Shown here piece by piece: positions 55,301 through 55,440 of a stretch of 59,938 nucleotides of DNA. Source of the stretch: an uncultured bacterium (lineage in GTDB: Bacteria; Patescibacteriota; Minisyncoccia; Moranbacterales; GWC2-37-73). The translations under genes and the position numbers were made by a program. The stretch's first letter is position 1. Each line of letters starts with the position of its first letter. The notes under the pieces were generated by a model. It ran no database searches. It saw only the letters and a list, made by a program, of their open reading frames with translations, and was not told the DNA's origin. The DNA lies in contig CAISKQ010000032.1 of the NCBI GenBank assembly GCA_903885965.1, forward strand, positions 1 to 59,938, read 5' to 3'.

Positions 55301-55440
55301 ATGTTTACAGAGTGTCGCGTCACTCACTCGTCGACACTCGTTCATTCCTTGCCCGCGGTGGCGCCAAATGCTCATCCGCATTTGTCGGCGCTCTCCTGCG
55401 TTGCCTTTCTGCTGAAAGTCAACTTGTTTCGCTGCCACCG

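Follow-up and report, generated by a model that had tools for sequence, protein, structure and literature searches.

What is the GC-rich spacer between two fragments of tRNA sequence near one end of contig CAISKQ010000032.1? The contig comes from an uncultured bacterium (assembly GCA_903885965.1; Patescibacteriota, Minisyncoccia, Moranbacterales, GWC2-37-73), and the window analyzed here is the whole stretch of 59,938 nucleotides (nt), positions 1 to 59,938 of its forward strand. The original prediction had described positions 55301-55440 as a multi-helix spacer between two tRNA-fragment cores, D1 and D2, with a related spacer at about 50.7 kb, and had suggested a structured RNA or a recombination substrate rather than coding sequence. 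The analyses reveal a complete copy of a tRNA-trailing structured element of the B-type (the type adjoining the tRNA) at 55299-55459 on the minus strand, recognized by a covariance model (CM), R1, and by nhmmer. The cores, which had been placed outside the spacer, are the element's own termini.

A folded element behind the tRNA-Lys gene

The R1 model has 163 positions and 44 pairs and was built from homologs. The 55-kb copy matches model positions 1-163 (55299-55458, minus strand) with 129.5 bits and E = 2e-35, a score that is partly circular in that the window sequence is one of the 57 seed rows of the model; nhmmer identifies the same copy with E = 5e-36. The other 110 CM and nhmmer matches score 24-181 bits, and the family is therefore real. 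The GC content of 55299-55459 is 55%, that of the whole window about 37%. When 55259-55461 is folded as a single sequence and compared with shuffled controls, z is -5.0 for the plus strand and -3.6 for the minus strand, so that the predicted excess of folding stands for this copy; for the 50-kb copy, which alone folds like shuffled sequence (z = -0.7 and +0.3), it does not. The open reading frames (ORFs) over the spacer have no Pfam match, and elsewhere the corresponding ORFs cluster through conservation of the DNA only; the preference for a folded nucleic acid over a coding sequence is thus borne out.

The gene that the element follows encodes tRNA-Lys(UUU) and lies at 55511-55584 on the minus strand (ARAGORN; 76.5 bits with the Rfam tRNA model). 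The window unit begins 51 nt past this gene, on the same strand, with a 20-nt antisense match to it. Neither ARAGORN nor the Rfam tRNA model calls a tRNA over the spacer or the cores, which hold only the T-loop, T-stem 3' strand and acceptor 3' strand sequence of a tRNA. The Rfam search that the original prediction proposed yielded no family over either locus: at the gathering threshold Rfam 15 recognizes only the tRNA in the window, with nothing credible over the spacer at E ≤ 10 and no match at the 50-kb locus. Five related loci searched in the same way gave no match to the element.

Homologs were sought with the 20-mer CCTTGCCCGCGGTGGCGCCA, which the original prediction had reported at both loci and which occurs exactly twice in the window, at 50750 and 55347 (chance expectation 0). 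A scan of one genome per species returned 25 loci, 21 of which are chance matches in GC-rich genomes. The matches at gene starts that translate as RLARGGAKK, which we take to be the beginning of ribosomal protein S16 (rpsP), were rejected as chance, their flanks being different. The four real loci are L013, from a close relative of the window, L009 and L016, from lake bins, and L018, from a Parcubacteria genome. L009 and L016 have the same scaffold, with a terminal sequence, GGTTCGAATCCCTGCGC, that corresponds to the 3' part of the neighboring tRNA-Pro and not to that of tRNA-Lys. A degenerate pattern of the core matched 90 metagenome loci, about 75 of them genuine and all on low-GC contigs, and nothing in viral contigs. 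IMG/VR, INPHARED and PLSDB contain no match to the element, and a phage or plasmid origin was rejected on these grounds. The family occurs in Moranbacteria, Parcubacteria and related genomes of the candidate phyla radiation (CPR), and on groundwater and lake contigs. Homologs of a protein encoded beside the element carry the name Candidatus Moraniibacteriota, which places the window, too, in a CPR bacterium. The covariance model collects 111 units in 81 loci, which reduce to 72 non-redundant arrays with 92 units; 58 arrays consist of a single unit, 10 of two, 3 of three and 1 of five.

The anatomy of the element was derived from alignments A1, A3 and A4 of 57-64 units, and its helices, P1 to P6, are numbered in the order in which they were identified. 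Read 5' to 3' on the strand of the tRNA, a unit consists of the terminal segment seg2, a conserved single-stranded stretch CGAAC, the helix P3, which encloses the P6/P5 arm and the P4 hairpin, a junction of invariant sequence, (A/G)GGACAAGGAG, the P2 hairpin with its conserved loop UGAGUGUCGACGAA, a conserved stretch GACGCG, and the second terminal segment, seg3. Seg2 and seg3 pair as the closing helix P1 (71% paired). The original prediction had listed a lack of covariation among homologs among the results that would refute it, and covariation is strong in the helices P2 to P6: 335 alignment cells show changes on both sides of a pair, as compared with 121 in shuffles. In the consensus structure 86% of cells are paired, as compared with 75% after shuffling and about 40% with the partners slid. 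P3 is 97.8% paired across 62 sequences, with the compensatory forms GGGCAG/CUGCCC, GGUGGC/GCCACC and GGUAGC/GCUACC. P5 is paired in 93.5% of cells, and 8 of its 9 pairs are changed on both sides. P4a is 98.8% paired and carries UA/CG and GC/AU swaps in 19 sequences. RNAalifold recovers P3, P4 and P2 independently. The assignment of the 3-bp helix P4b is doubtful, as RNAalifold prefers the pairs 28-73 and 29-72, both of which covary, together with 77-126 and 78-125.

All the strings and helices that the original prediction listed are present where it placed them. The nested helices CGGTGG/CCACCG, AAATGC/GCATTT, GCGCC/GGCGC and GTTGcCTTTC/GAAAGtCAAC exist in the window, and the CGGTGG, AAATGC and GTTGcCTTTC pairs correspond to the conserved, covarying helices P3, P4 and P5; the register of GCGCC/GGCGC is not settled. 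The window copy forms all three of P3, P4 and P5 (coordinates on the minus strand). The 5' strand of P3 (RNA CGGUGG) lies at 55435-55440 and its partner at 55356-55361, inside the conserved 20-mer (55347-55366); compensatory variants of this helix are found in the family. The covarying P5 hairpin occupies 55400-55423 (plus strand GTTGCCTTTC tgct GAAAGTCAAC), and the P4 hairpin, which also covaries, occupies 55362-55390 (plus strand CGC-CAAATGC, loop TCATCC, GCATTTG-TCG-GCG). The junction adjoining the P3 3' strand reads ...GGGCAAGG... in the RNA sense. In the P2 region (55310-55339) the family helix is not formed: the P2 pairs are non-canonical in the CM alignment, and the 3' tail (55310-55317) pairs instead with the conserved P2 loop (55332-55339). 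This alternative is the GAGTGTCG/CGACACTC hairpin of the original prediction. The 55-kb and 50-kb loci align over 56 nt with 82% identity (repeat D9), and the hairpin (G)AGTGTCG...CGACACT(C) is common to both, as had been reported; it is specific to a subfamily and an alternative to the family-wide P2. The 5' variant AAGTGTCGCG of the window copy is seen again in other tRNA-proximal copies.

In the closing helix of this copy the 5' strand (55451-55457) lies within seg2, and the 3' strand is best taken to be a degenerate seg3 at 55306-55312 (plus strand TACAGAG, RNA CUCUGUA). The proposed pairing of TACAGAG with the CTCTGTA that ends core D1 needs amending, in that TACAGAG pairs with the CTCTGTA of core D2 at 55451-55457 and not only with that of D1.

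The original prediction had listed its helices as plus-strand sequence; the informative strand is the minus strand. On the plus strand P3, P4a and P5 show 53 A·C mismatches as compared with 12 G·U pairs (99 and 13 when the disputed P4b is included). These A·C mismatches are G·U wobbles on the minus strand, where the P4 hairpin has 21 G·U pairs at one position. The folded molecule is therefore in the sense of the tRNA, the minus strand of the window. This assignment holds for RNA and would hold for single-stranded DNA, in which G·T is the mildest mismatch. A plus-strand RNA consisting of the scaffold followed by a 3' guide was rejected by the same asymmetry. Other candidates were also set aside: a K-turn or box C/D reading of P4 (no tandem G·A pairs), a small ORF behind the Shine-Dalgarno-like AAGGAG (spacing too short, and short variants without the ORF), and a template/variable repeat pair of a diversity-generating retroelement (differences between the window copies not adenine-specific).

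Element termini and the neighboring tRNA

The association with tRNA genes is regular. A tRNA gene lies upstream on the same strand in 49 of the 64 arrays that could be assessed, in 40 of these at a distance of 20-62 nt, and nine tRNA identities are represented (Gln, Pro, Lys, Tyr, Gly, Trp, Glu, Ser and His). The typical copy starts about 50 nt behind the tRNA, with a terminator-like hairpin between the two. Some units lie within a tRNA cluster of the order Thr-Tyr-[unit]-Thr-Trp.

Both ends of the unit repeat sequence of the neighboring tRNA. Seg2, at the 5' end, is an inverted copy of its T-loop, T-stem 3' strand and part of its acceptor 3' strand. Seg3, at the 3' end, is a direct copy of its last 7-17 nt, sometimes with some of the 3' flank, and is found in about half of the units. 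In the window, seg2 (55440-55459, minus strand) is core D2. It repeats positions ~52-71 of the neighboring tRNA-Lys in inverted orientation (plus strand GGTTCGAATCCCTCTGTACC), with all 20 nt identical; seg3, CTCTGTA, is a 7-nt direct copy of the T-stem/acceptor junction. Beyond the universal T-loop, the tail of a unit matches its own tRNA over a mean of 5.5 nt, as compared with 2.5 nt for tRNAs of other identity (0 of 5000 permutations), and the tRNA-specific part of the seg2 match varies from 1 to 12 nt among units. At orthologous tRNA-Lys loci the ends follow the local variant of the tRNA, with CTCTGTA in the window and CTCACGG in L118, where the end reads CCCTCACGG.

The tRNA tail, its flank and seg2 together form a quasi-palindrome with arms of 17-37 nt across the family, and the layout seen in the window is found at other loci too. 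In the window the tRNA-Lys 3' end, the flank and seg2 form arms at 55440-55485 and 55488-55533 (46 nt, 76%; inverted repeat I1), centered on a bidirectional terminator-like hairpin at 55473-55503 that a terminator scan detects on either strand. Many copies lie between direct repeats of 12-26 nt; those of the window copy are 7 nt only. In L099 a 24-nt direct repeat, composed of the last 6 nt of the tRNA and 18 nt of its flank, surrounds the 3' half of the hairpin, seg2 and the scaffold. The module repeated in L046 takes in, from the tRNA end onward, the terminator, seg2 and the scaffold.

Variation at a single tRNA was followed at eight tRNA-Lys loci, sampled through homologs of the flanking gene for a 165-amino-acid (165-aa) protein. 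L118, L122 and L123 have units, L117 has a truncated unit followed by cassettes, and L119 retains the inverted tRNA copy, seg2, without any scaffold. The tRNA-Lys and its unit are inverted as a block, relative to the 165-aa and BNR genes, in L118, L119 and L122, and not in the window, L117 or L123. The contigs of L116, L120 and L121 run no more than about 190 nt past the 165-aa gene and stop shortly before the position of the tRNA-Lys, and the repeats at this tRNA seem to break metagenome assemblies.

Arrays of three to five units follow tRNA-Gln or tRNA-Gly in L113 (2035-2888), L044 (3975-4433 and 5899-6217) and L078 (6570-7044). The units of L044 and three short units of L113 have a period of 140-157 nt and linkers of 19-20 nt, with no terminator between them, an arrangement that resembles satellite-type amplification. 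Small palindromic inserts (like GATCCGCCAGCTGGCGGATC or like CTGCCTGCCGGTAGGCAGG) interrupt hairpin loops in unit A of L009 (P2) and in L050, L082 and L086 (P4), and another lies within a partial tRNA-Lys duplicate at L117 5570-5620. A similar sequence, GATCCGCCTAGGGCGGAG, is found in the window at about 36330-36347.

Relics, core repeats and the cassette island

The 50.7-kb locus (50706-50787, minus strand) matches the covariance model with 46 bits and E = 2e-11 across a deletion of 78 positions, and nhmmer aligns it to model positions 98-153 (E = 7.5e-12). P6, P5 and P4 are gone; seg2, a residual P3, P2 and the tail are retained. We infer that this is a dead, internally deleted copy. The original prediction had taken the extra ~75 nt of the 55-kb locus for an insertion, and the polarity is the reverse: P6-P5-P4 is ancestral and has been deleted at 50.7 kb.

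The 3' part of tRNA-Lys, GTTCGAATCCCTCTGTACC(CA), recurs on the plus strand at 46699 (1 mismatch), 50770, 55280 and 55441, and on the minus strand inside tRNA-Lys itself. The tRNA-Lys gene being on the minus strand, the plus-strand copies have the opposite orientation to it. Several belong to fragments of the element, and nhmmer detects seg2 alone, or seg2 with the P3 5' strand, at 46684-46717, 50766-50788 and 55279-55295 (minus strand, as are the following). Core D1 is an orphan seg2 at 55278-55300, 23 nt that are 100% complementary to the tRNA-Lys 3' end (inverted repeat I6), of which nhmmer aligns model positions 4-20 only; a second unit began here and has been truncated, and what is left is fused to the promoter repeat of the cassettes described below. 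The fragment at 46684-46719 consists of seg2 and the P3 5' strand only (RNA TGGGTGCAGAGGGATTCGAACGGGCAGACGC; model positions 4-34, E = 1.6e-4) and is fused to the same kind of repeat. An isolated T-loop fragment at 50684-50694, GGTTCGAATCC, followed by ...GGCGGGCGGGCAGG on the RNA strand (repeat D14), is probably a remnant of another unit start.

These cores bound a variable island. A blastn comparison of L013 with the window shows the two to be collinear, at 77-92% identity, up to 46697 and again from 55212; the 8.5 kb between (46698-55211, cargo on the minus strand) are absent from L013. In more distant relatives the BNR gene, the unit or units and tRNA-Lys follow one another directly. The island is bounded by tRNA-core repeats and by a 46-nt repeat, repeat D2, whose copies (55212-55257, 46643-46688, 49407-49452 and 50606-50651) each stand in front of a minus-strand cassette gene. 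Three of the four (46643, 50606 and 55212) contain a sigma-70-like promoter, TTGAGT-17 nt-TATCAT/TATTAT with an upstream TG, at 55250->55222, 50644->50616 and 46681->46653. On the minus strand a cassette thus reads seg2 with or without the P3 5' strand, the 46-nt repeat and the cargo genes. Two cassettes additionally end with a 131-nt repeat that starts in a decayed tRNA-Lys end, and then a terminator; one such end, at 50792-50948, comprises a terminator hairpin (50792-50825) and the repeat (50818-50948), and a second copy lies at 46721-46873 (minus strand; repeats D1 and D8). The first nucleotides of the 131-nt repeat, TGGTGGGCA, appear from the sequence to be a decayed reverse complement of the tRNA-Lys 3' end. 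The alternative of a recombination substrate, which the original prediction had set beside a structured RNA, is accordingly still alive: the locus is a folded element, and the tRNA cores that flank it bound a variable island.

Searches with Pfam and PADLOC identify in the island RhuM/PDC-S05 (a PADLOC candidate, E = 1.8e-139), DUF2726, a protein with an Lcl_C domain, a glutathionylspermidine synthase, an alpha/beta hydrolase with a truncated second copy (54856-55152), and an IS3-family transposase (52830-53717). Repeats of a tRNA 3' part flank the 8.5-kb island, as at attachment sites, but in an orientation opposite to that of the tRNA gene, and no integrase accompanies them. No tyrosine recombinase is found among the window ORFs scanned with Pfam (those at 44-58 kb and ten large ORFs upstream), and neither the island of the window nor that of L108 contains a recombinase. 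Just outside the island, at 45809-46636, another cargo gene of the cassettes encodes a radical SAM protein that resembles 'mobile pair protein B', below the cutoff of that family.

The window is chromosomal, with genes for SecA, Mur ligases, a class II aminoacyl-tRNA synthetase and an M50 (RseP-type) protease. It is also rich in defense genes, among them a primase-helicase fusion of a TOTE conflict system at 1267-3432 (AEP-TOTE, E = 8e-87) and a type I restriction-modification system at 9277-21228 (HsdR 9277-12450, HsdM 19684-21228).

Other structured elements were noticed beside tRNA genes. A second scaffold type, GGGATTCCTCCTCAYYCAAACTTTCTCG...CCTCGGAGCCTGGG..., is framed by ends derived from tRNA-Pro, adjoins units of the first type and has no Rfam match; it is found in L009 (3742-3860), L077 (~405), L088 (~2064), L098 (~2176) and L108 (~3760). 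In the window, the intron option of ARAGORN calls at 36537-36677 (minus strand) a tRNA-Thr(AGU) whose anticodon loop is interrupted by 64 nt between positions 32 and 33; default ARAGORN and Rfam miss it. Downstream of this tRNA-Thr and of its terminator (36503-36533) lies a GC-rich, strongly folding element at 36310-36475, with minimum free energies of -75.6 kcal/mol (minus strand) and -65.6 kcal/mol (plus strand). Its closing helix is UGUCAU/AUGACA; it has no Rfam match and holds a T-arm-like sequence, GGGTCGATTCCGCTCCGC, that does not match the neighboring tRNA. It may be a third scaffold type with the habit of trailing a tRNA.

Origin and function of the element

The reading that we favor, tentatively and at somewhat less than an even chance, is that of a small, non-autonomous, structured element tied to tRNA 3' ends and resembling a miniature inverted-repeat transposable element (MITE). 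Like the Correia, RUP and REP/BIME elements, the units are short (~160 nt), non-coding and multi-copy, have terminal inverted repeats and flanking direct repeats, lie in intergenic regions near terminators, and occur as arrays and relics. They differ from such elements in that the terminal repeats are copied from the local tRNA tail and are not the element's own, in that the interior is a covarying multi-helix scaffold with a G·U strand asymmetry, and in that the target is specifically the 3' side of a tRNA. No parent transposase is known, and among 150 ORFs neighboring the units no transposase or integrase is enriched, the IS3- and IS110-family genes described below being isolated cases. The variation in copy number and orientation among related tRNA-Lys loci, including the seg2-only L119 and the truncated L117, speaks in favor of a MITE-like element, as does a second scaffold type with the same kind of tRNA-derived ends.

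A MITE-like element of this kind would have settled repeatedly at tRNA 3' ends, and its folded single strand would be what selection preserves, most simply as an RNA produced by read-through from the tRNA promoter. As double-stranded DNA, seg2 would be an inverted duplicate of the tRNA attachment core, beside which promoter-bearing gene cassettes would have accumulated, leaving the plus-strand cores at 46.7, 50.8 and 55.3 kb. That seg2 duplicates this core in inverted orientation would explain why plus-strand cores flank minus-strand cassettes. The tRNA-specific match is of erratic length, which looks more like the decay that follows a templated event than like a guide under selection.

Several observations weigh against this reading. 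Both inverted and direct copies of the target are present, and no mechanism for producing them can be named; template switching in quasi-palindromes is a candidate. The match between the ends and the tRNA could also result from homogenization of the palindrome by template switching, and not from insertion. Long-term compensatory evolution argues for a function of the fold beyond mobility. There is no clean empty site among the eight tRNA-Lys loci, three of which are on contigs that end at the tRNA. Integrases, transposases and reverse transcriptases are not enriched, by Pfam, among the 150 neighboring ORFs, and at no locus is one linked to the element. Ahead of the unit neither strand has a promoter-like site, and there is a terminator upstream of it. 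RNA sequencing runs cover the tRNA only, apart from two small matches to the conserved core, at a depth of about 3 in X21 and over 39 nt in the groundwater metatranscriptome run X24; these matches carry no strand information, and DNA carry-over is possible.

Conservation of the fold is among the points for the first alternative, that the unit is a host noncoding RNA of the tRNA operon. Such an RNA would be freed from read-through transcripts by the tRNA-processing enzymes RNase P and RNase Z and would act on the cognate tRNA or the ribosome, and its seg2/seg3 helix with a 3' discriminator would mimic an acceptor/T-arm minihelix. The strong covariation and the G·U asymmetry are consistent with this, as are the invariant junction, with its Shine-Dalgarno-like ACAAGGAG, the 12-20 nt or so antisense to the T-arm of the tRNA, the co-oriented and tight spacing behind tRNAs (including the unit inside the Thr-Tyr-[unit]-Thr-Trp cluster), ends that co-evolve with the local tRNA, and the failure to find a mobility gene nearby. 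Among tRNA-derived and tRNA-like RNAs, the 3'ETS-leuZ sponge, YrlA and the tRNA-like domain of tmRNA offer parallels, in that the unit is likewise a same-strand trailer of a tRNA 3' end and its acceptor/T-stem helix with a discriminator-like 3' end could recruit tRNA-processing enzymes. The unit differs from them in having no Rfam similarity, in that the T-arm is not formed, in that its tRNA-like 5' sequence is antisense, and in the apparent terminator that separates it from the tRNA, which also counts against this alternative. A seg2 match of 1-12 specific nt and the absence of seg3 from many copies are unlike a required guide or mimic, and tandem arrays, truncated copies and relics are common. 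We regard a host RNA as possible and on the whole doubtful.

The cassette island bears on a second alternative, that the unit is a site folded in single-stranded DNA, similar to attC or to the CTX-phage attP, at which a recombinase encoded elsewhere would capture promoter-bearing cassettes beside tRNAs. On folding, the palindrome of seg2 and the tRNA tail would recreate a double-stranded tRNA core. Each cassette of the window starts right after seg2 and the P3 5' strand with its own promoter repeat; the island is absent from the close relative L013; and comparable islands are seen in L108, between units, and in L117, behind truncated units. The folded strand has the sequence of the lagging-strand template, as judged from GC skew, and G·T wobbles are tolerated in DNA too. 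Integron attC sites and the CTX attP share with the unit a structure formed by one strand, arrays of gene cassettes, and inverted cores able to fold into a duplex copy of the target. An attC site is, however, a single imperfect hairpin (R''-L''/L'-R') with little sequence conservation, located beside intI and associated with promoterless cassettes, whereas the unit is multi-branched and highly conserved in sequence, its cassettes carry their own promoter-like repeats and no integrase was found in any island, so that the diagnostic layout of attC is lacking; the conserved loops and junctions of the scaffold are closer to RNA than to known attC sites. Elements that integrate at tRNA genes, such as those with P4-type integrases and a crossover in the T-loop, or the arrays of tycheposons, are alike in that partial tRNA 3' copies starting at the T-loop flank a variable cargo, in their tandem accumulation at one tRNA, and in an island that is absent from a close relative. 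The window cores, in contrast, have the opposite orientation to the tRNA, neither the islands nor their surroundings yielded an integrase, most family members are free of cargo, and the conserved part is a folded scaffold and not a set of arm sites for protein binding. Most loci are units without cassettes, and homologous recombination between repeats would also explain the cassette boundaries. A single-stranded DNA site is accordingly judged unlikely.

A variable, target-matched 5' segment ahead of a conserved scaffold is also what would be expected of a guide RNA, with seg2 as a 5' guide to the tRNA gene and the rest as a protein-binding scaffold for a distant RNA-guided nuclease, recombinase or transposase. 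The omega RNAs of IscB and TnpB and the bridge RNA of IS110 are similar to the unit as conserved, structured scaffolds of 150-200 nt to which a segment matching a genomic target nearby is attached. Isolated transposases do occur in the vicinity of units: the IS3-family gene of the window island, and an IS110-family (DEDD) gene at L117 1-832, about 4-5 kb from tRNA-Lys and its truncated unit; no IS110-family gene is found at other loci. BLAST clustering of neighboring ORFs reveals no protein family that is consistently adjacent to the units, and no protein of the kind required adjoins the unit in the window or is found among the 150 neighboring ORFs. Unlike omega and bridge RNAs, the unit has no adjacent effector gene, does not lie at a transposon end and matches its target erratically, so that their characteristic arrangement was not found; the guide would be held in P1 in many copies, and there is no similarity to the guide-scaffold families of Rfam. 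A guide RNA is very improbable. Least credible, at a probability close to nil, is a functionless remnant, whether a chance GC-rich relic of decayed tRNA pseudogenes or attachment-site scars or a short coding ORF: the 50-kb copy folds like shuffles and relics and fragments are common, but about 92 non-redundant copies with compensatory changes in five helices, a CM E-value of 2e-35 for the 55-kb copy, and ORFs that match no family and are not conserved as proteins effectively refute it for the 55-kb copy.

Searches of an open-access literature corpus yielded no description of such an element, which is apparently uncatalogued, a statement that rests on negative results in Rfam and in this literature only. 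The MITE-like reading can be carried further, to a class of protein-less, self-propagating structured RNA elements of ultra-small CPR bacteria that home to tRNA 3' ends, copy the tRNA tail into both of their ends, and so make decoy attachment sites that seed cassette and defense islands. This extension is speculative and rather unlikely; such an element would be a bacterial counterpart of short interspersed elements (SINEs), or an RNA that programs a host enzyme. If the account of the family as a whole holds, a single spacer has exposed a widespread structured element in some of the smallest and least understood bacterial genomes, an RNA or single-stranded DNA whose termini are templated by its chromosomal neighbor at no fewer than nine tRNA species. 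It may also explain why, in these organisms, tRNA genes are places both of contig breaks and of gathered variable or defense-like cassettes, and it would add one family, probably two or three related ones, to the catalogs of RNA. Even as an old MITE-like repeat, the element would be a marker of island boundaries in CPR genomes.

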